A DNA stretch of 64,000 nucleotides from the NCBI GenBank assembly GCA_945865815.1, contig CAMBFR010000003.1:1258-65257 (forward strand), given 5' to 3'. Shown here piece after piece: positions 46,898 through 60,504 of this stretch (position 1 is its first letter; every line of letters starts with the position of its first letter). The notes below the pieces were generated by a model. That model ran no database searches. It was given only the letters and a program-made list of their open reading frames with translations, and was not told where the DNA came from. The position numbers and the translations under genes were made by a program. The stretch is from Candidatus Sulfopaludibacter sp. SbA3 (lineage in GTDB: Bacteria; Acidobacteriota; Terriglobia; 20CM-2-55-15).

Positions 46898-49800
46898 CTA
46901 ATTCAGCCGCACGGAAACAATCTTCGATATTCCGGGTTCTTCCATCGTGACGCCGTAAAGCGCTGAAGCGGTCTCCATTGTACGCTTGCTGTGTGTGATC
47001 ACGATGAACTGCGTGCTCTGGCTCATGCTGCGCACCATGTTCGCAAAGCGATCCACGTTGGCATCGTCGAGCGGCGCATCCACTTCGTCGAGGATGCAGA
47101 ACGGGCTGGGCTTGTAACGGAACAGCGCAATCAGCAGCGCCAGCGCGGTGAGGGCTTTTTCGCCGCCGGAGAGCAACAGCACGTTCTGCAGCTTCTTTCC
47201 CGGAGGCTGCGCCACAATCTCCACTCCCGCATCCGGGTCGGCTGCTTCGTCAAGCAGCCTCAATTCCCCGTGGCCTCCGCCGAACAGCGAAACGAACGAT
47301 TCCTGGAATCCGAGGTTTATCGCCTCGAATGCCTCCTTGAACTGGCGGCGGCATACCGCATCGATTTCCTCGATCGCCTGCGCGGTATCGCGAATCGAAT
47401 CGAGCAGGTCCTGCCGTTGCGCCGTAAGGAAATCGAATCTTTGTTCCGCCTCCTGGTACTCTTCGACGGCCATCATGTTGACGGCTCCCATGGAATCAAT
47501 CTTCTCTCGAAGGTCGCGGTATTCCTGTTCGCGCGCTTCCAGCTCTTCAGGCGGCAGCGCCTGGAAAAACTCAATGCAAACCGATTCGATGGTTTCATTG
47601 AGCTCGCTGAGGCATAAGGCAGAGAGATGTTTGAGTTCGGAATCCACCTGGGTCTTTTCGATTTCGAGCTGATTGTGCCGGTCCTTCCAGGTGTCGAGCA
47701 GGCCGCGAGTTTCGTCCCACTTCGTTTCGGTCTCGTGAAGTTCGCGCCGCAGCTCTTCAAGGTGCGAGCCGGCTACGGCGATGGTCTCTGTCAGATGCTC
47801 ACGCTCCTGAACCAGCGCCTGGCGCGTCTCATCGAGTTCCGTAATGGTGGCCCGCATCTGGCTCTGCTGCTCGCCGGCTTGCGCGGTCTGGCGATCGGCG
47901 CGCGCGATGCGCTCATCGAGTTCCGCCTGACGCTGGCGAAGCGCGTTGATCTCACGCACCGCCGTGGATCTGCGTTCCTGCAGTACCGCCATGTTCGACT
48001 GATGCCCGGCCAGGTCGCGGGAGAGCGAGTCGGCCTCGATCCGCAGTTCCTCGTTCCGGCGCACTCTCGACTGAGTTTCCTGCTCGATGGCGGACTTCCG
48101 CGCCGCGATGGTCTCCAGTTCCAGGCCGGCATCAACGACGGACTTTTCGATATCCCGAAGCTCGGTCTTAAATCTCTGGATTTCCGCTGCCGCCAGCTTC
48201 CAGCGCTGCTCGGCCCGGCTGAAATCCGAGGCCAGCGCCTGAATTCGATGATCGCTGGAAAGGATGGCCTTCTCGGCATCCTGCAGTTCGACGAGGAGCC
48301 GGCCCTTGAGCGTTTCACTCTCTCTTACAAGTTCTTCGAGCCGCGCGACGTCGTCCTGCAACGCCACTGTTTCGCGCTGTGCCGCGGCCATGCGGCTATC
48401 CAGCTCGCGAATCTCCTTCCTCAGTGAAAGAGGACCGTGAGCCTCGTGCTCTCCCCAGCCGATGACGTGGCCGCGAACCACTTCTCCGGTACGGGCAAGG
48501 AAGACATACCTTGGATATTTTTCAGAAAGACTCCATGCCGTATCCACGGAATCGACGATATAGGCATCGCTCACGTGTTCGGCAAAATGCCGGACGCGCT
48601 CGTCGAGCCGCAGTACCGAACCGAGCGGAACCGCCCCGGTATCGGATGCAAGCGCCTCCGGCGGAGTGGGAGCCGTGTGGCCGTTCATGACCAGGCACTC
48701 CAGTCGTCCCTTCGTCACATCCTTTGCAACGCCGAGCGCTGCCTGTGCTTTCGTGCGGTCCTGCACCACGACATACTGAAGCTCGCGCCGCAGATAATCT
48801 TCAACGAGAGCCTCGTAGCCCGGCTCCACTTCGACGAAGTCGGCGAGCAGGCCAAGGGGGGACCAGTCCGAGCCGCGCACGTGACTGAAGAACTGCTGGA
48901 CGGATTCGGTGCTGTATGCGCGCTGGACGGCAAGTTCGCCGATCGTCTGCAGGCGGTGCCGGATGCTGTCTTCGCGGGTCCGGGCCTCTGCGGCGGCCTT
49001 GACAGCTTCGGCATGCGCCGCCTTGTTCTGCGCAAACTGCCGCTCCGCGCTTTCCAGACTGGTCTTCAGTTGGATAAAGCCGGCCTGTTGGCCCGAGTTT
49101 TCCTCTCGCGCCGAATTCAGCTGCTGCTCCATCTCGCGCGCAGCGGCGGTGGCTTCGGCCTCCTCGCGTTCGAGCCGCTGAACCTGCGCCGCCAGACGGC
49201 TCATCATTTCCGTGCGGCTGGAAATCTCGTTTCGGATTCGCGCCTCGCGGCCAACAATTTCAAACTGCTGGTCGCGCAGGCCGGCGATCGCGACATCCTC
49301 GCCGCGCCGGTTGTCGGCAACCACAACAGCAGCGGCCGTGGTTTGCTCGATAGACAGCTCTACGGCGCGCCTGGCGCCTTCCAGTTCGGCCAATTGAGTG
49401 GTCCGGACGTCATATTCCTGCTTCTGCCGGGCCAGGTCCTCGACGGCAATTCTCTTCTCCTCCGCCAGCACCTGTTTGCGTTCTTCCAGCGACCGGATCT
49501 GATCCTGCAACCGTTCGATTCGCTGGACGGCCTTCTCGTGTTCGAGTTCCACTTCGGAATGGCGATCGCGCGCTTCCGAAAGCACACGCTCCTGGTTCTC
49601 GAGATCGGCGCGGTGACGGCGGACCAGCGTTCCCAACCGGTCAATTTCGAGCTCGAGCCGTTTCCCTTCGTCTCCGATCGCGCCCAACGCAAGTTCGACA
49701 TTCTCCTGCTGGTTGATCATCATTTCGGCTTGAGTGGAAAACACGGAGGAAAGGATTTCCCTCATCCGGTTACGCAGCTCGATGAAACGCCGCGCTTTCC

Positions 49801-50500
49801 CTGCCTGGCGTTTGAGCGAATTCCGCTGCCGGTCGACTTCGGCCAGAATGTCGTTCACGCGCGACAGGTTCAGCCTTGCCGCTTCCAGCCTCGACTCGGC
49901 GAGCTTTCGCTTCGCTTTAAATTTGGTGATTCCCGCGGCTTCTTCAATGAGAGTGCGGCGATCGTGAGGCTTGGAGCTGAGCAATTGCCCCACGCGGCCC
50001 TGCTCGATGATGGCGTAGCTGTTGGGCCCCAGCCCCGTGCCCAGGAAGATTTCCTGAATATCGCGAAGCCGGCAGGGCCTGCCGTCGATGAGGTAAATAC
50101 TTTCGCCCGACCGATAGAGGCGGCGCTGAACGACAATGTCGCGAGGACCGTGCCCGTTCCCATTGGCCGCGCCATTGCCGTTGCCGTTGCCATTGCCGTT
50201 CCCATTCCCATTCCCGTTCGAGTGCTCGGGCTCGGTTTCGGTGAGTGTGATCGTCACCTGGGCCATTCCCATCGGAGCGCGGCTTCGCGTCCCATTGAAG
50301 ATGACGTCTTCCATTTTCTCGCCGCGCAGCGACTTCGCGCTTTGCTCGCCCAGAACCCAGGCAATGGCGTCGGAAACATTGCTCTTGCCGCACCCATTCG
50401 GGCCGACAATAGCGGTCACGCCGTTCTCATTTATAAGGATGTCGCCTTTATCGGAGAAGGACTTGAACCCGATCATCTCGATTCTTCGCAGTTTCAACAC
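46898..50500 (-). CDS. smc: chromosome segregation protein SMC
   Basis: Walker A GPNGCGKSN at the N-terminus. Long coiled coils. Hinge region. C-terminal signature LSGGEKALTALALLIALF plus Walker B ILDEVDAPLD. It carries an (NG)n low-complexity insertion at about aa 95-122. Confidence 0.9.
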   Translation of the reverse strand: MLKLRRIEMIGFKSFSDKGDILINENGVTAIVGPNGCGKSNVSDAIAWVLGEQSAKSLRGEKMEDVIFNGTRSRAPMGMAQVTITLTETEPEHSNGNGNGNGNGNGNGNGAANGNGHGPRDIVVQRRLYRSGESIYLIDGRPCRLRDIQEIFLGTGLGPNSYAIIEQGRVGQLLSSKPHDRRTLIEEAAGITKFKAKRKLAESRLEAARLNLSRVNDILAEVDRQRNSLKRQAGKARRFIELRNRMREILSSVFSTQAEMMINQQENVELALGAIGDEGKRLELEIDRLGTLVRRHRADLENQERVLSEARDRHSEVELEHEKAVQRIERLQDQIRSLEERKQVLAEEKRIAVEDLARQKQEYDVRTTQLAELEGARRAVELSIEQTTAAAVVVADNRRGEDVAIAGLRDQQFEIVGREARIRNEISSRTEMMSRLAAQVQRLEREEAEATAAAREMEQQLNSAREENSGQQAGFIQLKTSLESAERQFAQNKAAHAEAVKAAAEARTREDSIRHRLQTIGELAVQRAYSTESVQQFFSHVRGSDWSPLGLLADFVEVEPGYEALVEDYLRRELQYVVVQDRTKAQAALGVAKDVTKGRLECLVMNGHTAPTPPEALASDTGAVPLGSVLRLDERVRHFAEHVSDAYIVDSVDTAWSLSEKYPRYVFLARTGEVVRGHVIGWGEHEAHGPLSLRKEIRELDSRMAAAQRETVALQDDVARLEELVRESETLKGRLLVELQDAEKAILSSDHRIQALASDFSRAEQRWKLAAAEIQRFKTELRDIEKSVVDAGLELETIAARKSAIEQETQSRVRRNEELRIEADSLSRDLAGHQSNMAVLQERRSTAVREINALRQRQAELDERIARADRQTAQAGEQQSQMRATITELDETRQALVQEREHLTETIAVAGSHLEELRRELHETETKWDETRGLLDTWKDRHNQLEIEKTQVDSELKHLSALCLSELNETIESVCIEFFQALPPEELEAREQEYRDLREKIDSMGAVNMMAVEEYQEAEQRFDFLTAQRQDLLDSIRDTAQAIEEIDAVCRRQFKEAFEAINLGFQESFVSLFGGGHGELRLLDEAADPDAGVEIVAQPPGKKLQNVLLLSGGEKALTALALLIALFRYKPSPFCILDEVDAPLDDANVDRFANMVRSMSQSTQFIVITHSKRTMETASALYGVTMEEPGISKIVSVRLN
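50150..50225. repeat. imperfect hexanucleotide tandem repeat (GCCRTT/CCCATT)n inside smc, encoding NGNGNGNGNGNGNGNGAANGNGHG
   Basis: Plus strand reads ...GCCATTGGCCGCGCCATTGCCGTTGCCGTTGCCATTGCCGTTCCCATTCCCATTCCCGTTCGAG... It is in-frame within the SMC head domain. Confidence 0.7.
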
Positions 50501-50726
50501 GTAGACCCCTCGGTTGTTCGTTTGTCGACCTCTAGCTTCGCTACGAACACAGACAGATTGGGTCCATTCCCTGGTAGTGGTCTAATTCGGGGACAGGCCA
50601 CTAATGTGCTCGGACAATGGCCGGCCTTGCTGAGCTACTTCAGTTATGGTTGTTTTAGTAGAGATTTGGGTAGGCGTCTTAATTCGCGCGGCGCTGTAAA
50701 GATATCCACGGCCTTGGGGGCATTCA

Positions 50727-50760
50727 GCCAAAAAATGGGGCGGCGTATTGAACGCCGCCC
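50727..50760 (-). terminator. rho-independent terminator
   Basis: On the minus strand GGGGCGGCG-ttcaata-CGCCGCCCC is followed by ATTTTTTGG. It lies about 200 nt downstream of the 50955..52301 gene. Confidence 0.6.
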
Positions 50761-50954
50761 CCAGCTTGATCGCCATCTTAGGTGTGACTCCTCACGCAGG
50801 ATTTCTCCAGGCGTCGCAGGCTTTCGGCGCAGGGTCACCATGGAAACCTTCCTCCGCGTCTGGAGAAAACCACGGCGCCCGACTGCCGGTCTGGCTTTTG
50901 CCGCATCGCGCATCTCCCGATCATGAAGACAAGGTGATACGGAATGCGAAGAGG

Positions 50955-52301
50955 CTACGCCGTCTTTTCAAATTCCCCGCTGGTTCGCTCCTTGAGACGA
51001 TCCAGAACAGCCTTGTAGCTCTTGGCGGCGAGCGTCATCGTGTTTTCGACCGTCGCGACCGCGGAGTTCGGATGGTACAGGCTTGCCTTAAACTGTCCGT
51101 CTTCGGATACAGGAGCTTCGGATTCCTGGCCACGGATCGTCATCTTAAGGTTCCCGGCCGCGAAGCCACGATTTGCGCCGCCGGCCACCGGTTCGCCCGC
51201 TGTCGCGCTGAACATCATGTTGCGAAGGGCGAACTTGATGGAGACGGTCTCGGATATTCCTTTTCCCTTGGGTTCGGCCTCGGCTTTCCTGGTCTCCAAG
51301 GCTTCCTGGATTTCCGGCTTGATGCCGAGCGGATGGACAGGCTTCGAAGACGTGCCGGTTGCTTTCTTCTGTCCGTTCCCGTTGCCCTGACCATTGCCCT
51401 GAGCGTTCGCGGGCTTGGAAAGAGCCTGGTTGCCGATTCCCAGGCCAAGACCGGGATTCAAATTCGACTCGTTTCCAAGGCCGGCTCCCTTGACGTTGTC
51501 CAGGAGTCCCGAGGACGGGGCCGGCGTCTCTTTCTTTGGCTGTGCAGAAACATTGATCAAGAGCGTTGTCGGGAGCTTCGGACCTCCGGGGGCCTCTTCG
51601 GCTGTTGTCTCTGACGCGGGTTGGCCGCTGGCTGCGCTTTCGCCAGGTCCGGCTGGAGGTCTCGTTGGCTCCGCGGGAGGCCGAACGATGACGCTGGGCT
51701 TTTCACCGACCGATGCGGAGTTCGGTCCACTGGGAGAGACCAGGACCACCGGGTTCTTTTCGGACGGCGCCACATTGGTGGGCGCCTTGTATGTCTCGTC
51801 AGGTTTCGGCGTGTTTTTACTGCCCTCCCTCAGCGATAGAGAGACCGTATCGCGCTTAACATTCCTGGCTAGTTTCAGATTCGTCTTGATCTTCCGGCTC
51901 TCGCTGACGGAGACTTCCCGGGCAGTAGCGATGTTTTCTTGTACCTTCGAATTTCCCTGGCTGACGGAGGGCTGCGAGGTCCGGACCTTCATGCGCCTGC
52001 TGCCCTTCGCAGGCGTATCGGCGACGGAAGAATTCGCGTTTGTCTGGGCCGCATTGGCGGCGTTTACGGAAGAATTCGAGTTTGCTTGGCCCGCATTGAC
52101 GGAGTTTACTGACGGCATGAGTGTTCCCCTCTGAACGCTGGACTTTGTAGGCGGCCCGTTATTTTGCTGGGCGCTTTCGCCCGGCCAGACTCGCCCCATG
52201 CGGATCTTATCGACCGATTGCTTTCCAACTTTAGAGATAAGATCGGAATATTCCTGCAAGGTCGCTGAGTCTGACACTGAATCACGTTCATTTGACGGCA
52301 T
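50955..52301 (-). CDS. low-complexity Ser/Asn/Pro/Gly-rich protein of unknown function
   Basis: 448-aa ORF with an N-terminal region of SVNAxxANSNSS repeats, then Pro/Ala/Ser-rich stretches and (QGNG)n. Only the last ~90 aa look globular. Start codon choice is uncertain. It is divergent from the Rrf2 gene. Confidence 0.45.
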   Translation of the reverse strand: MPSNERDSVSDSATLQEYSDLISKVGKQSVDKIRMGRVWPGESAQQNNGPPTKSSVQRGTLMPSVNSVNAGQANSNSSVNAANAAQTNANSSVADTPAKGSRRMKVRTSQPSVSQGNSKVQENIATAREVSVSESRKIKTNLKLARNVKRDTVSLSLREGSKNTPKPDETYKAPTNVAPSEKNPVVLVSPSGPNSASVGEKPSVIVRPPAEPTRPPAGPGESAASGQPASETTAEEAPGGPKLPTTLLINVSAQPKKETPAPSSGLLDNVKGAGLGNESNLNPGLGLGIGNQALSKPANAQGNGQGNGNGQKKATGTSSKPVHPLGIKPEIQEALETRKAEAEPKGKGISETVSIKFALRNMMFSATAGEPVAGGANRGFAAGNLKMTIRGQESEAPVSEDGQFKASLYHPNSAVATVENTMTLAAKSYKAVLDRLKERTSGEFEKTA

Positions 52302-52356
52302 CTCCCTGCCGGTCTCAGGAAAACATCCTGGTCCATGCTATTCTGGCCACCCGTTT

Positions 52357-52806
52357 ATGAAGATTTCCGCCAAGGACGAGTATGCCTGTTCCGCCGTTCT
52401 GGAACTGGCGCTGAACTACGACGGCGACACGCCGGTTCGAGTGCAGGACATTGCCAAACGCCAGGGGATACCGATCAAATTCCTGTTTCAGATCATGCAG
52501 ATTCTAAAACGCGTCGATATCGTCCGCAGCAGACGCGGAACCGAAGGAGGATACGTGCTGGCCCGGCAACCAAACCAGATTGCCGTCGGCGAAGTCATCC
52601 AGGCGATCAGCGGGCCGTTCGTCCAGCTTTCGTGTCTCGATTCGGGAAGTTTCAAGGACAACTGCGAGCGGGAAAGCATGTGCCACTTCAAACCGATCTG
52701 GGCCGACGTGGACCGCGCCATCGCGTCCGTCCTCAATAACGTGACGTTCGAAGACCTGGTCCGGCGGGCACAGGCCAATCAACGCCAGTTGATGTATCAC
52801 ATATAA
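52357..52806 (+). CDS. Rrf2-family transcriptional regulator (three-Cys, likely Fe-S-binding, IscR/NsrR-like)
   Basis: MKISAKDEYACSAVLELAL... winged HTH, with CLDSGSFKDNCERESMC cysteines. The ATG at 52357 was verified. Confidence 0.8.
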   Translation: MKISAKDEYACSAVLELALNYDGDTPVRVQDIAKRQGIPIKFLFQIMQILKRVDIVRSRRGTEGGYVLARQPNQIAVGEVIQAISGPFVQLSCLDSGSFKDNCERESMCHFKPIWADVDRAIASVLNNVTFEDLVRRAQANQRQLMYHI

Positions 52807-52810
52807 GCAA

Positions 52811-55447
52811 ATGAGGTTCATCCTCCACATCGACATGGACGCGTTCTACGCGTCGATCGAGCAAATCGATCATCCGGAGTACAAGGGGAAACCGGTGATT
52901 GTCGGCGGGGACCCGAAGAACGGCACGGGCCGGGGCGTCGTTGCGGCGTGTTCCTACGAGGCGAGGAAGTTCGGGGTGAGGTCGGCATTGCCCATCACGC
53001 GGGCCTGGCGCCTCTGCCCGGAAGGCGTTTATGTGCGGCCGAGGATGGAACGGTACGTTGAAGTCTCCCGCCAGGTGATGAGCGTTTTCCGCAAATATAC
53101 GGACCTCGTGGAACCCCTCAGCATCGACGAAGCGTTTCTCGATATCACCGGTTCCATCGCCCTCTTCGGTCCTCCGCAGGAAATTGCCCGATCGATAAAG
53201 AAAGAGATCCGCGAAACCACGGGCTTGACCGCCTCCACCGGAATCGCGCCGAACAAATTCCTGGCCAAAATTGCGTCCGACCTGAAGAAGCCCGACGGCT
53301 TCGTCATCGTTGAAGAAACGAACGTCGAGTCCTTCCTCCGGGACCTGCCGATCTCCAGGCTCTGGGGTGTCGGACCCAAAACCGAGCAGCGGCTTCAGCA
53401 GGAGGGCCTGCGGACTATCGGAGAAATTGCAGCCAGGCCGCGCGAATTGCTGGTGCGGATGCTTGGCGGGCTTGGCGAACATCTTTACCAGCTTTCCAGG
53501 GGCATTGACGACCGGCCCGTCGTTCCCAACTGGGAGCCCAAATCCATCAGCAGCGAAACCACTTTCGATGAGGACACCGGCGATCGCGAACTGCTTCTTC
53601 GCACGATCCTCGAACTTTCCGATCGTATTGCCGAACGGCTTCGCAAGGAGGGATACCGGGCGCGCAAAGTCACGCTGAAGCTCCGCTACTCCAGCTTCTC
53701 GACGCACACGAAACAGCGCTCGCTATCCAACCTCGCGCAGGACGGAAGTGAAATCGCCCGCGAAGCCCGCGACCTGTTCGGCCGGTTCCCTTTGGATGAA
53801 AAAATCCGGCTGATCGGCGTCAGCGCTGGCGATCTGCATCGCGATGGCGATAGCCCGCAGTTGGCGCTCTTCAACACCGAAGATCCCGCAGGCGCCGGAA
53901 CCCAACGGCTGGAGAAACTCGGCCACACCATGGATAACATCAAGGGCAAGTTCGGCGCCGGCTCAATGCGGCGAGGATCGGATCTGCTGAGCCTGGGTTT
54001 GCTCGTACTCTGCCTGGCGCTTGGCGCATGCGCGAAGCCCCAACCCGTGGCCGTTCAACCTCCACCACCTCCCATACCCGAAGACATTGTTCAGCAGGAG
54101 CAGGGCCTTCGGGCGCTTCACGAATTCACGCCGCAAGGCTACGGGCGGGCCATTCAGCATTTTGGCCGCGCCATCGAGCTTCAACCCGGCAACTGCGGCT
54201 ACAAGCTCATGTACGCGGAATCGAACCTCTTTCTGGCCCTGGAACAGAAACTGAACTACGAAGAATTTCGTCCGGCCTGGGAACGGGCGGCCGATCCGCT
54301 GTGCGCTCCCGAAAGCGCATTCGCGCTGCGCCTGGAGGTGTTTCGGTCGCTGGATGATTTCGGCCCGGTCCGCGACCGCACGGTCCTGAACAAGATTAAT
54401 CAGGCAATTCTTCTGGAGCCGGATGAGCCGCTGAACTGGTTCATCCGCTGGAAGCTCAATCCCACGACGAACCGGCAGGAGAATTCCATCCTGAAGGCCG
54501 CCGAGCTAAAGCCCGATCTCGCATTGATTCAATACGAGCTCGGAAATTATTTCCTTGTGAAGGGCGAGTATCCGGCAGCGCGGTCGGCGTTCGAGCGGGC
54601 GCTCGAACGGAGTCCCCGGCATTTCCGTTCGTACATCGGCCTGGCACAGGCAATATCCGCGCTGGACGAAGAACAGGACGTCACCCACCTGTATAAGCGC
54701 GCCGTCGAACTCGGCCCGGAATTCCTGGAAGGACGCATCCTTCTCGGAGACTACTACTTCGGACTCGAAGAACACGACCTGGCACGGGAGCAGTACGTTG
54801 CGGCGGTCGAGCAAAATCCGGGATATGAAGTCGCGCACCTCCGGCTGGGCCTCAGCTATCTTCAGAGCAACAGCCCTGATGGGCTTTCCGGGACTGCTGG
54901 GCTCGACAGGGCGGAAAGAGCGTTCAACACTGCCATCGCGATCAACCCCGCCAGCTACGAGGCGTATTACTACCGTGGCAATGTCTGGCTTGCCAGGGGC
55001 AATCTCGAAAAAGCGCGGGAGCAGTACGAGGAATCCCTGAAATACGTCCTGAACTTCCCAGACGCCGTATATGCCCTGGGCACCGTGCTGTTCCGGCAGG
55101 GGAAAATGGATCTTGCGCTCGACCAGTTCGAGAACATCCTTCGTCGAAACCGAAACCATGCCGACGCCTATTTTTCGCGCGCGGCCATCCGGTCGCAGCG
55201 GCGCCAGACCTCCGACGCCATCGAAGATTACACTCGCGCGCTGGCCCTGTATGACAGGCAACTGGTGGCGGCCATGGAATCGATTGTCGAGTTCGAGGAA
55301 CGGGAGTTGTTGAGAAAGGCCGAAGCGGAAAAGAGGAAGAAGGAACGGCTGGAGAGTAACATGCAGCGAGCTCGGCAATTAAAAATGAGACTCGAAGATC
55401 AGATCATGAGCGGCTGCGAATGCCAGCCCGATAGGGCGCAGCCATAA
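52811..55447 (+). CDS. dinB: DNA polymerase IV (DinB) whose reading frame continues without a stop into a hydrophobic/lipobox segment and a ~480-aa TPR-repeat domain
   Basis: N-terminal 390 aa are a complete DinB (MRFILHIDMDAFYASIEQ ... little finger ... canonical C-terminal ...IKGKFGAGSMRRGSDLL). The same frame then continues SLGLLVLCLALGACAKPQ..., followed by many TPR repeats up to 55447. Confidence 0.7.
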   Translation: MRFILHIDMDAFYASIEQIDHPEYKGKPVIVGGDPKNGTGRGVVAACSYEARKFGVRSALPITRAWRLCPEGVYVRPRMERYVEVSRQVMSVFRKYTDLVEPLSIDEAFLDITGSIALFGPPQEIARSIKKEIRETTGLTASTGIAPNKFLAKIASDLKKPDGFVIVEETNVESFLRDLPISRLWGVGPKTEQRLQQEGLRTIGEIAARPRELLVRMLGGLGEHLYQLSRGIDDRPVVPNWEPKSISSETTFDEDTGDRELLLRTILELSDRIAERLRKEGYRARKVTLKLRYSSFSTHTKQRSLSNLAQDGSEIAREARDLFGRFPLDEKIRLIGVSAGDLHRDGDSPQLALFNTEDPAGAGTQRLEKLGHTMDNIKGKFGAGSMRRGSDLLSLGLLVLCLALGACAKPQPVAVQPPPPPIPEDIVQQEQGLRALHEFTPQGYGRAIQHFGRAIELQPGNCGYKLMYAESNLFLALEQKLNYEEFRPAWERAADPLCAPESAFALRLEVFRSLDDFGPVRDRTVLNKINQAILLEPDEPLNWFIRWKLNPTTNRQENSILKAAELKPDLALIQYELGNYFLVKGEYPAARSAFERALERSPRHFRSYIGLAQAISALDEEQDVTHLYKRAVELGPEFLEGRILLGDYYFGLEEHDLAREQYVAAVEQNPGYEVAHLRLGLSYLQSNSPDGLSGTAGLDRAERAFNTAIAINPASYEAYYYRGNVWLARGNLEKAREQYEESLKYVLNFPDAVYALGTVLFRQGKMDLALDQFENILRRNRNHADAYFSRAAIRSQRRQTSDAIEDYTRALALYDRQLVAAMESIVEFEERELLRKAEAEKRKKERLESNMQRARQLKMRLEDQIMSGCECQPDRAQP
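53966..55447 (+). CDS. alternative interpretation: separate TPR-repeat lipoprotein starting at the internal ATG 53966
   Basis: MRRGSDLLSLGLLVLCLALGAC has signal-peptide shape with an L-A-L-G-A-C lipobox. Downstream are TPR repeats (AIQHFGRAIELQP..., YELGNYFLVKGEYPAARSAFERALERSP..., YYYRGNVWLARGNLEKAREQYEESLKY...). This start is in-frame inside the dinB ORF. Confidence 0.35.
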   Translation: MRRGSDLLSLGLLVLCLALGACAKPQPVAVQPPPPPIPEDIVQQEQGLRALHEFTPQGYGRAIQHFGRAIELQPGNCGYKLMYAESNLFLALEQKLNYEEFRPAWERAADPLCAPESAFALRLEVFRSLDDFGPVRDRTVLNKINQAILLEPDEPLNWFIRWKLNPTTNRQENSILKAAELKPDLALIQYELGNYFLVKGEYPAARSAFERALERSPRHFRSYIGLAQAISALDEEQDVTHLYKRAVELGPEFLEGRILLGDYYFGLEEHDLAREQYVAAVEQNPGYEVAHLRLGLSYLQSNSPDGLSGTAGLDRAERAFNTAIAINPASYEAYYYRGNVWLARGNLEKAREQYEESLKYVLNFPDAVYALGTVLFRQGKMDLALDQFENILRRNRNHADAYFSRAAIRSQRRQTSDAIEDYTRALALYDRQLVAAMESIVEFEERELLRKAEAEKRKKERLESNMQRARQLKMRLEDQIMSGCECQPDRAQP

Positions 55448-55466
55448 AGTAAATGAGGGGCGGCCT

Positions 55467-56534
55467 ATGAAATCACTTCTCTTTCTGGTGCTTTTTCTGG
55501 TTCCGCAGGAAGATCCCAAACAGCTGCAGGCGGTGTTCGACACGTCGGCCGGAACATTCATCGTCGAGTTCTATCCGGACCAGGCGCCCAATCACGTCGC
55601 CAGGTTTATCGAGCGCGCGCGGCAGGGTTTCTATAACGGAACATCGTTTCACAGCATGGTCGGCCACGGCATTGTTCAGGGCGGCGATCCGGAAACCCGT
55701 GACATGAATGCCCGCGCCAAATACGGAACCGGCGGATTCAACCTGGGACTGAAACCCGAACTCAGCGATGTGCCGTTTGCCCAGGGCACGCTCGTCGCAA
55801 CGATACTGCCCGGCGAACCCGATAGCGCGGGAACGCAATTCTTTATCTGCGTCACGGACCAACTGCAATTCACCCGGCAGTTCACGGCTTTTGGAAAAGT
55901 CGTCGAAGGAATTGAAGTCGTCGACAAGATCTCGACCACGCCCGCAGACGACAACCAGATTGCGCGGGAACGCGTGGACCTGAAGAGCGTCACGATACGG
56001 CCGATTCCAAGACCCGCTCCACCGCCATTCACGACAGAAACGATTGATGAACTCCGCCAGCATAGAGTTGTGATGGAGACCTCGAAGGGGAACATCGTGC
56101 TCGAAATGCTGCCCGATAAGGCCCCGGACCATGTGCGGCACTTCCTGAGGCTGACCTCGCTCGGCGTGTACGACAAGACGGCGTTCCATCGAGTCGCTCC
56201 GGGATTTGTGATCCAGGCCGGCGACCTGAACACCCGCACGGAGCCCGTCCCTCAGGTTGCGCAAAAGTACGTTGTGAACATCCGGGCGGAAATCAACGAT
56301 GTGAAACACGTTGCCGGAATCATTTCGATGGCGCGCGGCGAAGCGATCGACAGCGGGCTGACGTCATTTTTTATCGTGCTGTCGAATCAGCCCGCGCTGG
56401 ACGGAATCTATACCGTCTTCGGCCGCGTCGTGGAAGGCATGGATGTTGTCGAGAAAATCACGGCCGTGCCCAACGAGAATGAGCGCCCGACCGAGCGGAT
56501 TGACATCTATTCAATGAAGGCGGAGAAGAGGTAG
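55467..56534 (+). CDS. tandem-domain cyclophilin-type peptidyl-prolyl cis-trans isomerase, secreted
   Basis: Signal peptide, then two cyclophilin domains (FHSMVGHGIVQGGDP... and FHRVAPGFVIQAGD...). Confidence 0.85.
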   Translation: MKSLLFLVLFLVPQEDPKQLQAVFDTSAGTFIVEFYPDQAPNHVARFIERARQGFYNGTSFHSMVGHGIVQGGDPETRDMNARAKYGTGGFNLGLKPELSDVPFAQGTLVATILPGEPDSAGTQFFICVTDQLQFTRQFTAFGKVVEGIEVVDKISTTPADDNQIARERVDLKSVTIRPIPRPAPPPFTTETIDELRQHRVVMETSKGNIVLEMLPDKAPDHVRHFLRLTSLGVYDKTAFHRVAPGFVIQAGDLNTRTEPVPQVAQKYVVNIRAEINDVKHVAGIISMARGEAIDSGLTSFFIVLSNQPALDGIYTVFGRVVEGMDVVEKITAVPNENERPTERIDIYSMKAEKR

Positions 56535-57193
56535 CGCCCTTCGGCGAAATCCGAAATCGCACATTCGGCGCCGGACTCGCGAAGCTCATCGACGTTGTAG
56601 TCGCCGGTGGCAACGCCGACGGCCCTGAAGCCGGCATCGAGCGCGGCTTCGATATCGAGAGGCGTATCGCCGATGACGAAAATGTCCTGCGGATCGATGT
56701 CACTGCCGAAACTTCGGCAGGCACGATCGGCGGCGCGGCGGACCAGCTCCGGGCGCTTCTCCGAATCCGAACCAAAGCCGCCAAAGGCAAAATAGCTATT
56801 CAGTCCGCCCCGGTCCAGCTTGATGCGGGCGCCCATTTCCACGTTGCCGGTGGCTAGCCCAACCATTGCGTCCGCGCGGCCGCTCAATTCGCGGAGAATT
56901 TCCACGATTCCAGGCAGGACCCGATAGGTTTCCGACAGCTCTACTTCTTCGCGCAGGAACGAGAGATAGGCCTCGATGATCGTTTCAAGCACGTCCGGAG
57001 TTGCGGCATCTTCACCAACCCGGGCAGTCAGGGCGTGACGTACGATGCTCGTGTCGGTTCGGCCATGCCGCGGGACTCCCTCCATCGCGTTATCGACGGA
57101 AAGGATTTTCCTGAAGGCACGATCGAGAGCGCGCACACCTGCGCCGCCGGTGTTGATGAGCGTCTGATCCACATCAAAGAGAAGCAATTTCAC
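56507..57193 (-). CDS. HAD-superfamily hydrolase (phosphoglycolate phosphatase-like)
   Basis: Motif I MKLLLFDVDQTLI. Motif IV FVIGDTPLDIEAA. Confidence 0.8.
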   Translation of the reverse strand: MKLLLFDVDQTLINTGGAGVRALDRAFRKILSVDNAMEGVPRHGRTDTSIVRHALTARVGEDAATPDVLETIIEAYLSFLREEVELSETYRVLPGIVEILRELSGRADAMVGLATGNVEMGARIKLDRGGLNSYFAFGGFGSDSEKRPELVRRAADRACRSFGSDIDPQDIFVIGDTPLDIEAALDAGFRAVGVATGDYNVDELRESGAECAISDFAEGRYLFSAFIE

Positions 57194-57264
57194 GAATACT
57201 ATTCTAGCAGCGCGCGGAAACGCGAACCGCGCAAGGCACGGCGGGGGAACTTCGGCAGGACAAA

Positions 57265-57426
57265 TTACGCGCAGGCCACCAGTGCTTCGGCCGGTTCCAG
57301 AATTTCCAGCGCCTCGCAGCCGTCCATTTCGAGTTCAAACCCGCAGCCTGGCTCAAGACAGATCAATCCGTTCGATAGAACGGAATACGCCATCTCATTC
57401 GAACTTTCACATCCTGGGCAGATCAT
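57265..57426 (-). CDS. 53-aa Cys-rich zinc-ribbon-like small protein
   Basis: Translates as MICPGCESSNEMAYSVLSNGLICLEPGCGFELEMDGCEALEILEPAEALVACA. GAGGAGG sits 6 nt upstream of the ATG at 57426. It is below the size cutoff of the ORF track. Confidence 0.4.
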   Translation of the reverse strand: MICPGCESSNEMAYSVLSNGLICLEPGCGFELEMDGCEALEILEPAEALVACA

Positions 57427-57545
57427 GCTAAACCTCCTCAATTCTCTCTGTGTTCAGTGCACGTCGGTTGCCAACAGGCCGGGTTAGACATTCTCCGCAA
57501 AAGAAAGGTTAGATCCGCCCGGAAATTTGTTTTATATTCTCCGAC

Positions 57546-57848
57546 TTGTTCAGAAAGAAGGAGATGCCCTTGATCGAAACCGCCACGATTACGATCGACA
57601 GGCTCCGCATTTTTTCGGACCGCACTCACACGCTCGTTACTATTGACGCGCCGCTGTTCGGCAGTGTCATGATTCTGAACGGGCAGATGCTGGAGAAGGG
57701 CTACGAGATCGAGGTCGGCAACTCGAAGGGATTCCCGTACCCGGAACACATCATTGCCGAAGCCACTCGATTCTGGGTCCTCAACGGCACTGGTATTCGG
57801 AAGCGAATGAGCCGCGAAGAAATGGCCAAGCTTCTTGATGCAAGCTAA
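57546..57848 (+). CDS. hypothetical ~92-100-aa protein
   Basis: ORF MFRKKEMPLIETATITIDRLRIFSDRTHTLVTIDAPLFGSVMILNGQ... The best Shine-Dalgarno (AGGAG) is placed for a TTG at 57570. A candidate promoter TTAGAT-N18-TATATT lies upstream. Its 3' end overlaps the next gene start. Confidence 0.4.
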   Translation: MFRKKEMPLIETATITIDRLRIFSDRTHTLVTIDAPLFGSVMILNGQMLEKGYEIEVGNSKGFPYPEHIIAEATRFWVLNGTGIRKRMSREEMAKLLDAS

Positions 57849-58527
57849 TGCCGCGACTGATGCCGAGACCCGAAAACTAACCCGCCGTCAGCGGATCAAG
57901 GCCGGCCTGATCGCGTGGCTTGGATACTTCGTGATTGCCCTCGTCGGGCGGACCATCCGATGGCAGACCGCCGGCGACTCCCACCTCGACGATATTTACA
58001 AATCCGGGAATCGCGCGATTTTCACGTTCTGGCACGGCCGGATCTTCCCTGCAACATACTATTGGCGCCACCGGCAGATCGTGGTGATGACCAGCATGAA
58101 CGTCGACGGTGAAGCCATCGCGCAGTGCATTCAGCGTTTCGGATACGGCGCCGCCCGGGGATCCAGTTCACGCGGCGGATTCCGGGCTCTGGCGCAGATG
58201 GCGCGGGAAATCCGGCGCGGCCGCGATGCCGCATTTACAATCGATGGCCCGCGCGGCCCCCGCTACGTCGCCAAACAGGGGCCCGTCCTGCTGGCGCTGA
58301 AAACCGGGGCCGCTATCTTCTGTTTTCATATTTCAATGAAGCACAAGATCCAGCTCAATTCGTGGGACGAGTTCCAGATTCCAGTCCCCTTCACCCCCGC
58401 GGTTGTTCTGCAGGCGCCACCGATATGGGTTCCTTCCGGCGCCTCCGAAGAGAACCTTCGCGACATCCACCAGAAAATGCAGCGCGTTCTCGATGATCTG
58501 CGTCAAAGGGGAGACGCCTGGTGGTGA
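57835..58527 (+). CDS. DUF374 domain protein (lysophospholipid-acyltransferase-like superfamily)
   Basis: FTFWHGRIF...MTSMNVDGEAIAQCIQRFGYGAARGSSSRGGFRAL...TIDGPRGPRY matches the DUF374 core. Confidence 0.7.
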   Translation: MMQANAATDAETRKLTRRQRIKAGLIAWLGYFVIALVGRTIRWQTAGDSHLDDIYKSGNRAIFTFWHGRIFPATYYWRHRQIVVMTSMNVDGEAIAQCIQRFGYGAARGSSSRGGFRALAQMAREIRRGRDAAFTIDGPRGPRYVAKQGPVLLALKTGAAIFCFHISMKHKIQLNSWDEFQIPVPFTPAVVLQAPPIWVPSGASEENLRDIHQKMQRVLDDLRQRGDAWW

Positions 58528-58551
58528 GTCGGGCGGTGTGTCAGGAGACTT

Positions 58552-58679
58552 GGAAATTGGACGAATCCTGCATCTCAGATCCGAAATCCCGAAATATCAG
58601 ATTGGACCGTTGGGAGGATCGCCAGTCCAATTGAAGGTTTCGGATTTCGGATTTGAGATGCAGGATTCGTCCAATTTCC
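58552..58679. repeat. long imperfect inverted repeat (43-bp arms, ~42-bp spacer containing a nested 9-bp IR) upstream of the rhodanese-ThiF gene
   Basis: Left arm GGAAATTGGACGAATCCTGCATCTCAGATCCGAAATCCCGAAA (58552-58594). Right arm TTTCGGATTTCGGATTTGAGATGCAGGATTCGTCCAATTTCC (58638-58679). Spacer contains AGATTGGAC...GTCCAATTG. Another hairpin CCCCTTGAGGGG follows. Confidence 0.7.
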
Positions 58680-58763
58680 AAATGCCTCCCCTTGAGGGGC
58701 CTTCCCTTGATGAAATGGATAGTGTAAATTCGAGATCACCAAATCAATCGAGTAAGGGCGTAT

Positions 58764-59939
58764 ATGAGTACAGACTTCAGAGACATGTTGAGTCAGGTAA
58801 AGAAGCAAATTCGTGAGGTGTCCGTCCAGGATGTAAAGGATAAGTTCAATATTGACAATGGCTTTACCCTGCTGGACGTCCGCGAGAAGGACGAGTGGGA
58901 CCAGGGCCACCTGCATCAGGCGATCTTTCTTCCCCGCGGCTTCCTCGAAGTAAAGGCTGACAAACTTTTGACTGATCGGGACCAGAAGATTGTCGTTTAT
59001 TGCGCCGGCGGCACTCGGTCCGCGTTCGCGGCCAAGACGCTCCAGGACCTCGGATATAAGAATGTTGTCTCCATGGCCGGTGGGTTTGGCGCCTGGAAAG
59101 ACAGCGGCCTGCCCGTTGTCGTTCCGGAAAAGATCGGCAGCGATCAGATGGCCCGGTACAGCCGCCATCTTCGCGTCCCCGAGGTTGGCGAAAAGGGACA
59201 ATTAAAGCTGCTCCGGAGCAAAGTGCTGCTGGTTGGCGCAGGCGGACTGGGCTCGCCGGCCGGCGTCTATCTGGCGGCTTCCGGCGTAGGCACAATCGGT
59301 TTGATCGACAATGACGTCGTGGACGAATCGAATCTCCAGAGGCAGATCCTTCATTGGACCTCTTCAATCGGAATGCCGAAGGTCGATTCCGCGCGGCGGA
59401 CTCTTTTCGAAGTCAACCCGAACGTGAAGGTGCGGACCTACAACCTGCGGCTGGATGCATCGAACGTTCTCGATATTTTCAACGACTACGACGTGATCGT
59501 CAGCGGTTCCGATAATTTTTCGACCGCCTACCTTGTCAATGACGCGGCGGTGATGCTCAAGAAGCCGGTCGCATACGGCAGCATTTTCAGGTTTGACGGC
59601 CAGGCATCCACATTCATTCCCCACGAAGGACCCTGCTTCCGGTGCCTCTATCCCGAAGCAACGCCGCCGGAGCTTGCGCCAAGCTGCGACGAGGCGGGAG
59701 TGCTCGGAGTCCTTCCCGGAGTAGTCGGCCTGATCCAGGCGACGGAAACCGTAAAGCTCTTGCTGACCGCGGGAACCTCGCTGTCGGGACGGTTGCTGAT
59801 CTATGACGCGCTCGAAATGTCGTTCCGCCAGGTCAAGTTCCGGCGCGACCCGGCGTGCTCGGCGTGCGGTTCGGACCCTCATATTGATCTGGAATCCATT
59901 CCCGAGTTCGTTTGCGCAATACCCGCGAAGCAAGGGTGA
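58764..59939 (+). CDS. N-terminal rhodanese domain fused to ThiF/MoeB-type E1-like adenylyltransferase
   Basis: Rhodanese active-site loop VVYCAGGTRS at aa ~75. Then the ThiF/MoeB domain (YSRHLRVPEVGEKGQLKLLRSKVLLVGAGGLGSP...) with the CFRC...CSAC zinc motif. Confidence 0.8.
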   Translation: MSTDFRDMLSQVKKQIREVSVQDVKDKFNIDNGFTLLDVREKDEWDQGHLHQAIFLPRGFLEVKADKLLTDRDQKIVVYCAGGTRSAFAAKTLQDLGYKNVVSMAGGFGAWKDSGLPVVVPEKIGSDQMARYSRHLRVPEVGEKGQLKLLRSKVLLVGAGGLGSPAGVYLAASGVGTIGLIDNDVVDESNLQRQILHWTSSIGMPKVDSARRTLFEVNPNVKVRTYNLRLDASNVLDIFNDYDVIVSGSDNFSTAYLVNDAAVMLKKPVAYGSIFRFDGQASTFIPHEGPCFRCLYPEATPPELAPSCDEAGVLGVLPGVVGLIQATETVKLLLTAGTSLSGRLLIYDALEMSFRQVKFRRDPACSACGSDPHIDLESIPEFVCAIPAKQG

Positions 59940-60358
59940 AGAAACCGGATTCGATCCACGTCGGCGATTTCGTCTATTGCCGGTCGAAGTACTATCGTGA
60001 CCAGCTCCAGCTTCCCCAGGAACTGGGGCTGGTCATCGAGATCAAGCGAAGCAATCTCAAGGTTCTCTACTCGGGCGACAAACGCTGCTGGCTTCCCCTC
60101 GAAACCGTGGCGAAGGTGAAACCCGATCTCTCACACTCCACCCTGGCCGAAAAGCTCCACTACCTGATCAAGCGCGTGCACGCCGATGAATGCGAAATTG
60201 TGTCCGATGGCCGAATCACGCGAGTCACGCTCCGGATCGACCACATCGATCATGAAGCGGTTGACGATGTGCGGACATTTCTCGCCGGTAATTTCATTTC
60301 GCTGGCGGTTGTGCCCGAAGGGATGGCGTTCATGCAGGTGGAGATAAAGTTTTCTTAA
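59936..60358 (+). CDS. hypothetical protein translationally coupled to the rhodanese-ThiF gene (N-terminal SH3/KOW-like segment)
   Basis: The GTG at 59936 overlaps the TGA of the upstream gene (GTGA). Sequence reads ...HVGDFVYCRSKYYRDQLQLPQELGLVIEIKRSNLKVLYSGDKRCWLPLETV... then a ~80-aa second region. Confidence 0.45.
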   Translation: MKKPDSIHVGDFVYCRSKYYRDQLQLPQELGLVIEIKRSNLKVLYSGDKRCWLPLETVAKVKPDLSHSTLAEKLHYLIKRVHADECEIVSDGRITRVTLRIDHIDHEAVDDVRTFLAGNFISLAVVPEGMAFMQVEIKFS

Positions 60359-60504
60359 CCTCCGCAAATCCAATGGAGAATCGCGAGGGCGCCCTGGAAA
60401 ATCTACCCGGCCTGATCCCAGGGGGATACTCTCGACCAGAGGTAATTGCCTGCGTATTACGAAAATGATAATGTGTATATACGCAGAAATGGAGGCAGCC
60501 GATT

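Follow-up and report, generated by a model that had tools for sequence, protein, structure and literature searches.

The fused reading frame analysed here lies on the forward strand of contig CAMBFR010000003.1, within a stretch of 64,000 nucleotides, the whole of which is referred to as the window. The open reading frame (ORF) extends from 52811 to 55447 and, on translation, comprises 878 codons plus a stop, with no internal stop codon and the first stop at 55445-55447. It encodes, in order, a DinB-type DNA polymerase IV, a signal segment and a domain of tetratricopeptide repeats (TPR). A first-pass annotation of the stretch had reported that the dinB frame continues into a TPR domain without a stop codon, and both this reading and all of its coordinates were borne out. 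In the fused protein, the Pfam polymerase domains were located at residues 7-157 (IMS), 170-197 (IMS_HHH) and 243-353 (IMS_C), DNA polymerase IV equivalogs of NCBIfam covered residues 1-397, and the TPR families of Pfam were found from approximately residue 570 to residue 830. The junction reads KFGAGSMRRGSDLL, SLGLLVLCLALGAC and AKPQPVAVQPPPPPIPED in succession, the last part beginning with AKPQ, and the fused protein has an in-frame ATG at 53966 and a cysteine codon, that of Cys407, at 54029-54031.

The DNA polymerase IV module was assigned to residues 1-393 (52811-53989, forward strand) from its domains, its catalytic motifs and the equivalence of L393 to the end of DinB in relatives. It scored 396 bits against NF002677 (cut-off 256) and 378 bits against NF002751 (cut-off 371). 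The catalytic motifs DMD (residues 8-10) and SIDE (residues 104-107) were intact and aligned to E. coli D8 and to the D103/E104 region. A motif of the beta-clamp-binding type, QLALF, was found at residues 350-354 (53858-53872, forward strand), with QLQLF at the equivalent place in the related locus L004. We take it to be a putative clamp-binding motif, assuming the consensus QL[SD]LF.

The closest solved structure, the stand-alone DNA polymerase IV of PDB entry 7YLL, was a full-length match of the 49% identity class (313 bits) and has both the catalytic residues and the tail motif ...G..I.KGSELL in common with the window DinB. In 7YLL the ...KKGSELL tail sits four residues short of the C-terminus, and across 1.84 billion representative proteins DinB homologues ended at query residues 383-393. 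L393 is thus the natural end of DinB, and the complete polymerase that had been annotated in the first ~390 codons was confirmed by Pfam and NCBIfam. Unlike stand-alone DinB proteins (7YLL and E. coli DinB, 4IRC), the window protein has no stop after the tail and carries an additional 485 residues. It therefore departs from the usual stand-alone architecture of about 350-420 residues ending soon after the tail. By every sequence criterion save this architecture the DinB half is a DNA polymerase IV, and its activity is predicted.

Residues 392-406 are the only strongly hydrophobic stretch of the fused protein, with a Kyte-Doolittle mean of 2.6 over 15 residues. This stretch, L392-A406 (53984-54028, forward strand), consists of 15 uncharged residues at the hydropathy maximum and within a predicted helix at residues 390-406, and we assigned it as the hydrophobic h-region of a signal peptide. 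It leads into the lipobox L-G-A-C (54020-54031, forward strand), which was recognised by comparison with orthologues and in which Cys407 is the predicted site of lipidation and of LspA cleavage. LLSLGLLVLCLALGA followed by C407 fits the lipobox rule [LVI][ASTVI][GAS]C after an uncharged h-region (PROSITE PS51257-type), and the cysteine was invariant in a 36-sequence alignment of TPR orthologues. The lipobox had been noted in the first-pass annotation and stands, but the cryptic transmembrane segment proposed there is instead the retained h-region and lipobox of a lipoprotein signal peptide. When compared with 51 orthologues, the h-region of the fused lineage was in the upper range of hydrophobicity without being an outlier, and thus gives no hint that it has adapted to serve as a permanent anchor.

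The lipobox is followed by a proline-rich tether, AKPQPVAVQPPPPPIPED (residues 408-423; 54032-54079, forward strand), which was a coil in the AlphaFold2 (AF2) model and has similar proline-rich counterparts in orthologues. The TPR superhelix then occupies residues 424-868 (54080-55414, forward strand), with Pfam scores of 97 bits for TPR_1, 95 bits for TPR_2 and 83 bits for TPR_16. The AF2 model was good for this half, where the predicted local confidence (pLDDT) exceeded 90 over most of the superhelix, and poor for the DinB half, owing to a shallow alignment there. Confidence also dropped at a nine-residue insertion, PDGLSGTAG (residues 689-697; window 54875-54901), in a TPR loop. This insertion was absent from P0002 and from the fused homologue at locus L002, described below. 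Two cysteines of the TPR half, C462 and C498, were invariant (columns C77 and C113 of orthologue alignment A2) and fit a periplasmic location of the domain. In a fold search of the PDB the best match was the TPR superhelix of OGT; only generic TPR superhelices were recovered, which gave no functional clue for the TPR protein.

Among the named TPR lipoprotein families considered (PrsT, PilW, NlpI, LapB, Tgl and GltE), the NCBIfam cut-off was reached for none. The scores were 93 against a cut-off of 312 bits for PrsT, 64 against 154 for PilW, 38 against 250 for NlpI and 29 against 363 for LapB. We place the TPR half in an as yet uncharacterised family of predicted acidobacterial TPR lipoproteins.

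The same fused ORF was present in a second genome, the metagenome-assembled genome (MAG) of Candidatus Sulfopaludibacter sp. SbA3 (GCA_945861845.1; Solibacteraceae, Bryobacterales, Acidobacteriota), at loci L002, L003 and L005. The encoded protein, P0001, has the junction RRGSDLL/SLGL, identical to that of the window, at 87% nucleotide and 89% amino acid identity. A one-residue variant of P0001 (P0328), located on yet another contig, had the same junction. A protein identical to that of the window was also encoded on contig L001, which was 100% identical to window positions 47811-60447 and hence represents the same genome as the window. When genome contigs were searched for the fused ORF, only the SbA3 MAG was detected, besides one unrelated TPR protein. 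No entry of the library of 1.84 billion representative proteins matched both halves, the best match being a TPR-only protein (536 bits). A search with the TPR half alone recovered about 60 orthologues with 35-68% identity, all of them stand-alone except P0001.

The stand-alone TPR orthologues numbered about 58. Full-length ones were about 440-525 residues long, and nearly all of these had a lipoprotein-type signal peptide with a lipobox at the N-terminus. The DNA upstream of the TPR gene could be read at 12 loci (L004, L007-L012, L015, L016, L021, L024 and L028), and one further contig, that of P0129, was known from its gene table only. A dinB gene was directly upstream of the TPR gene in all 13 of these related loci, with a gap of 100 nucleotides on the P0129 contig. 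At each of the 12 read loci, dinB ended with TAG or TGA exactly at the position of L393 in the window. The tail of the relatives' DinB was ...RRGSQL[LR] in 11 of the 12, and ...QKGSELS in L021. The gap between the two genes ranged from 15 to 220 nucleotides in the relatives, and their relative reading frame varied.

A TA[GAC]AAT box was found 7-12 nucleotides before the ATG of the TPR gene, with no Shine-Dalgarno (SD) motif between them, at L007-L013, L019, L021, L022 and L024. It lies within 2960-2982 in L007, 2436-2457 in L009, 2972-2991 in L010 and 2974-2994 in L011. In L007-L009, the TAG stop of dinB forms the first half of the box. The relatives that keep the box share just 50-65% protein identity. 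This conservation, together with the spacing, suggests that the box is the TPR gene's own -10 box, from which a leaderless or very short-leader mRNA would be transcribed.

Two other arrangements of the spacer were observed. In a sub-group of loci, L004 (6005-6095), L028 (2128-2205), L015 and L016, it contained a long GC-rich palindrome, gaccctcacccggc ... gccgggtgagggtc, resembling a REP-like (repetitive extragenic palindromic) or terminator element. Read through, the palindrome gives PLPLGEGGAKRRVRV, and because of this read-through gene callers extend the TPR ORF of these loci back over the dinB stop. The closest unfused orthologue (P0121, 68% identity) is encoded at L027, where a hairpin, cccctcc-taaaata-ggagggg, precedes the TPR start (positions 1-34). 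Its 3′ arm doubles as an AGGAGG SD motif, a start architecture unlike that of the other relatives. The L027 contig begins 31 nucleotides upstream of the TPR start, placing the end of dinB outside it.

Neither the window nor L002 retains the dinB stop, the spacer, the TA[GAC]AAT box, the original TPR start or the n-region of the signal peptide. Instead, the ...DLL of DinB is joined to SLGLLVLCLALGAC, which lines up, counting back from the cysteine, with orthologue h-regions, for example MSKCGTIMLCLTLAAC. Since the stop, spacer, box, start and n-region were all lost, the event was not a point mutation of the stop codon: it deleted a few dozen bases at least. The comparison shows that this deletion, which cost dinB its stop, occurred in the ancestor that the window genome shares with Ca. 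Sulfopaludibacter sp. SbA3 (Bryobacterales, Acidobacteriota). The same ancestral deletion took the spacer, the -10-like box of the TPR gene, and the start codon and n-region of the lipoprotein, and as a result DinB, up to its final residue L393, now reads in frame into the signal-peptide h-region of the lipoprotein. The fusion is a derived state of narrow phylogenetic range, occurring in two uncultured acidobacterial genomes.

Two other models of the event were considered and rejected. In a microhomology model, MRRGSDLL would have been the lipoprotein's own N-terminus; however, RRGS.LL is the DinB tail in all relatives but L021 (QKGSELS). A one-base deletion converting TAG to AGC would have left the TPR frame without a start codon.

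The first-pass annotation had considered a genuine fusion, a lost dinB stop codon, and an indel or assembly error. The comparison of orthologous loci that it had proposed gave the same junction residues in the second genome, and two genes with a dinB stop at the junction in the farther relatives. What is retained is therefore a genuine fusion, brought about by loss of the dinB stop, and what is rejected is an indel or assembly error, the junction being shared by a genome that has diverged by 13%. Nothing weighs against the reality of the fusion other than that both genomes are metagenome assemblies known from assembled sequence alone. This, and the fact that a single T inserted after 53989 would restore CTG CTG TAG, the stop of several relatives, speaks for an explanation in which there are really two genes, with a dinB stop masked by a chimeric join or by one base too many or too few. 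We assign it a negligible probability. The junction is repeated in independent assemblies of the 13%-diverged genome and in a near-identical third variant, and the identity of the junction residues at this divergence led us to reject assembly error. Furthermore, the loss extends beyond the stop to the start codon, the spacer and the -10 box. Neither alternative frame contains an ATG, GTG or TTG before the lipobox, and consequently the TPR frame would have no start codon after any single indel, and no single indel recreates two genes.

As the junction is common to both genomes, all of the divergence between the window and L002 (dS about 0.5 overall) arose in the fused state. The ratio of non-synonymous to synonymous substitution rates (dN/dS) was 0.117 (range 0.114-0.117) for the DinB half, with a dS of 0.47 and with 98 synonymous and 46 non-synonymous differences. 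It was 0.112 for the mature TPR domain and 0.10 for the 22-codon signal segment. Unfused DinB pairs at similar divergence had dN/dS values of 0.110-0.119. By this measure of substitution, both halves are shown to have been under purifying selection since the fusion, DinB being as constrained as in its unfused relatives. The selection on the mature TPR domain further indicates that the TPR protein is still needed.

These ratios bear on the proposal that dinB is functionally dead, that DinB is a translated leader or discarded read-through, and that only an internally initiated lipoprotein matters. The candidate internal start, Met386, is specific to the fused lineage and correctly placed, as that proposal would have it. 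However, a leader would evolve neutrally at the protein level, whereas the dN/dS of DinB equals that of unfused pairs, so DinB is neither a decaying remnant nor a mere translated leader. The catalytic and putative clamp motifs of DinB are also intact, and we regard a dead dinB as very improbable. Taken together, the locus very probably carries a real, selectively kept fusion created by deletion.

Since no stop remains, every ribosome translating dinB would make a precursor consisting of DinB, the signal segment and the TPR domain, and proteolysis would be the only source of free DinB from the fused ORF. A programmed +1 frameshift in the DinB tail would offer another source, by reaching the TGA at 53988-53990 and freeing a DinB of near-normal length. 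In the window, that +1-frame TGA coincides exactly with the position of the ancestral stop, and CTG CTG AGC is also present in L002. In a GC-rich genome, however, Leu-Leu-Ser is most often encoded as CTG CTG AGC. Neither a stimulatory element nor a shift-prone motif could be recognised, and the +1 reading would exchange the conserved tail for AQCGEDRIC. Such frameshifting is extremely unlikely.

Two routes to separate products are proposed, and they are not mutually exclusive. In the first, the retained h-region and lipobox, with RR before them and the proline-rich tether after them, would act as an internal export signal of N-in, C-out orientation. Sec would translocate the TPR domain, Lgt would lipidate Cys407, and LspA would cut between A406 and C407. 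The products would be a normal mature lipoprotein and a DinB to whose C-terminus the signal peptide would stay attached as a membrane tail. Such a DinB could work from the membrane, or it could be freed upon degradation of the signal peptide. Because it would have been usable immediately after the deletion, this route helps to explain how the deletion could be fixed despite the loss of the promoter and start of a selected gene. In the second route, internal initiation at Met386 would give a prolipoprotein beginning with MRRGSDLLSLGLLVLCLALGAC, in which the DinB tail would serve as n-region. The change from Val or Leu to Met at residue 386 probably added this second route.

We give precursor export with LspA cleavage about an even chance of operating. 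Several points weigh against it. The hydrophobic stretch has only 15-17 residues, as is usual for the h-region of a lipoprotein, and falls short of a long membrane anchor. In the literature, we found no documented Lgt/LspA processing of a lipobox ~400 residues from the N-terminus, and a membrane-held polymerase IV would have restricted access to DNA. The strongest version of this route would make the polymerase an obligate N-terminal extension of the prolipoprotein. Lgt and LspA would then process a two-compartment polyprotein. Cleavage at Cys407 would keep polymerase IV tail-anchored in the inner membrane, and its release through degradation of the signal peptide would set the level of translesion polymerase that reaches DNA. 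This version is speculative and rather doubtful; if it were true, LspA would accept a lipobox about 400 residues from the N-terminus.

Another reading of the same topology is a stable, uncleaved, bifunctional type II membrane protein with DinB in the cytoplasm but anchored to the inner membrane through the hydrophobic helix, the TPR domain in the periplasm and no processing. RR precedes the predicted helix at residues 390-406 between two folded modules, both halves are under selection, and ToxR and CadC exist as membrane-tethered DNA-binding proteins, all of which would suit such a protein. Nevertheless, the lipobox and its cysteine have been kept under selection and are equivalent to their counterparts in the stand-alone orthologues, a lipobox that has been translocated normally undergoes modification and cleavage, and a permanent anchor would be expected to be longer than this hydrophobic stretch. 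We therefore consider an uncleaved product unlikely, and return to the two proposed routes of separation.

The evidence for internal initiation is centred on the ATG at 53966-53968 (forward strand), the candidate independent start of the lipoprotein. Met386 was specific to the fused lineage: residue 386 was Val or Leu in 11 tabulated syntenic relatives and Leu in L028, and Met was found at this position in none of 118 DinB homologues. The eight codons from 53966 to 53989 (forward strand) encode MRRGSDLL, which by alignment of the DinB tail forms the last eight residues of DinB and by the lipoprotein rule a candidate signal-peptide n-region. Starting from Met386, the product MRRGSDLLSLGLLVLCLALGAC satisfies the PROSITE-type lipoprotein rule, with Cys at position 22 and RR at positions 2-3. 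The rule places the cysteine within about 15-35 residues of the N-terminus and a Lys or Arg among the first seven, which fits a Met386 start only; in the full ORF the cysteine is at residue 407.

Other features of the site speak against such a start. There was no SD-like motif before the ATG at 53966 and no TA[GAC]AAT box 7-12 nucleotides before it. The mRNA around it had a folding energy of -18.2 kcal/mol, compared with -11 to -15 at real starts, and was more structured than 72% of ORF windows. The SD search is itself uninformative, because among the 47 long ORFs of the window only 11 were preceded by an SD-like motif; the organism seems to initiate translation largely without SD motifs. A sigma-70 consensus scan of 51800-56800 detected neither a promoter-like site nor a terminator on the forward strand inside the ORF. 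TAACAT at 53935-53940 (L002 4853-4858), 25 nucleotides before the internal ATG, has no other TAnnnT hexamer beside it within the final 470 nucleotides of dinB. A lineage-specific change of Glu to Asn, by which VDE[IL]K became MDNIK, gave rise to it. The hexamer might serve as a new -10 box inside the ORF; as it is within chance expectation, we keep it as a lead only.

The suggestion in the first-pass annotation that the ATG at 53966 could start an independent lipoprotein is thus compatible with the lineage-specific methionine and is backed by no other initiation signal. Whether internal initiation at Met386 contributes alongside the precursor route is finely balanced. Overall, the best explanation is probably a deletion-made, selected fusion whose products are separated by precursor export and LspA cleavage, by internal initiation, or by both.

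The fused ORF is part of a conserved row of genes, rrf2 - dinB - TPR - cyclophilin-type peptidyl-prolyl isomerase (PPIase). The gene for the Rrf2-family regulator (52357-52806, forward strand; Pfam Rrf2, 121 bits) ends with a stop 4 nucleotides before the dinB ATG, and it was also found as a neighbour in L002, L004 and L028. Its start, the ATG at 52357, is preceded 12 nucleotides upstream by TATTCT without an SD motif (window 52340-52359), the same layout as in the TPR genes of the relatives. Downstream, the PPIase gene (55467-56534, forward strand) encodes a protein of 355 residues with two stretches matching Pfam Pro_isomerase (257 bits) and a signal-like N-terminus, MKSLLFLVLFLVP. It was present at the same place in L002, L004, L027 and the P0129 contig. 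The TPR lipoprotein and the PPIase may be an envelope protein-folding pair. Upstream of rrf2, the reverse strand carries an SMC gene (1200 residues; 46898-50500) and an ORF of 448 residues without a Pfam match (50955-52301). This upstream context is common to L004, and L002 has instead a DUF6152 gene and a TPR-like gene of 542 residues, so synteny between the two fused genomes breaks just upstream of rrf2.

The fusion resembles Rosetta-stone composite proteins, in which adjacent, co-oriented genes that are separate in relatives become one ORF after a small deletion at their boundary. It differs from them in that it unites proteins of two compartments, a polymerase of the cytoplasm and a lipoprotein of the periplasm, through a signal peptide, and in that the deletion also took the promoter-like box and start of the downstream gene. 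ToxR and CadC are transcription factors with true membrane anchors, no lipobox and a periplasmic domain. They share with the window protein the predicted layout of a cytoplasmic DNA-binding module, a single hydrophobic helix and a periplasmic domain, but the window protein has a Y-family polymerase on the cytoplasmic side and, as its helix, a signal segment of the cleavable type.

With in-frame nested genes and internal-initiation proteoforms, such as ClpB, the long and short forms of CheA, and IF2 (reviewed in PMC13515050), the locus has in common an internal in-frame ATG that could give a shorter, differently localised product. Here, however, the products would be unrelated proteins, and no SD, promoter or open-structure signal accompanies the ATG. 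The h-region, the L-G-A-C lipobox, the proline-rich tether and the ordinary orthologues all resemble prolipoproteins of the Lgt/LspA pathway (reviewed in PMC8689077). In those, the signal peptide has 15-35 residues, whereas the cysteine of the full-length window protein is residue 407, behind a folded enzyme of 393 residues. In the literature, we found no report of a fusion of DinB to a membrane segment or protein.

Fusion of adjacent genes is a known process. What is unusual here is the union of two different compartments, the signal peptide as the joint, and the eight codons that serve both as the tail of DinB and as a potential n-region. The arrangement is also locked in, since a new stop after L393 would destroy the signal peptide. 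Because the halves belong to different compartments and are joined via a signal peptide, the fusion does not imply a functional interaction between them, and Rosetta-stone inference would wrongly link DinB and the TPR protein. Automatic annotation, for its part, will name only one half or the other. The locus amounts to a natural experiment, in which a cytoplasmic polymerase and an exported lipoprotein have been welded together through a signal peptide and have both experienced normal purifying selection over a long period since (dS about 0.5). It raises the questions of whether Sec, Lgt and LspA can handle a signal segment behind a folded domain of 393 residues, whether polymerase IV can function when it is membrane-tethered or released, and how a gene deprived of its promoter and start recruits a new start from the coding sequence of its neighbour.

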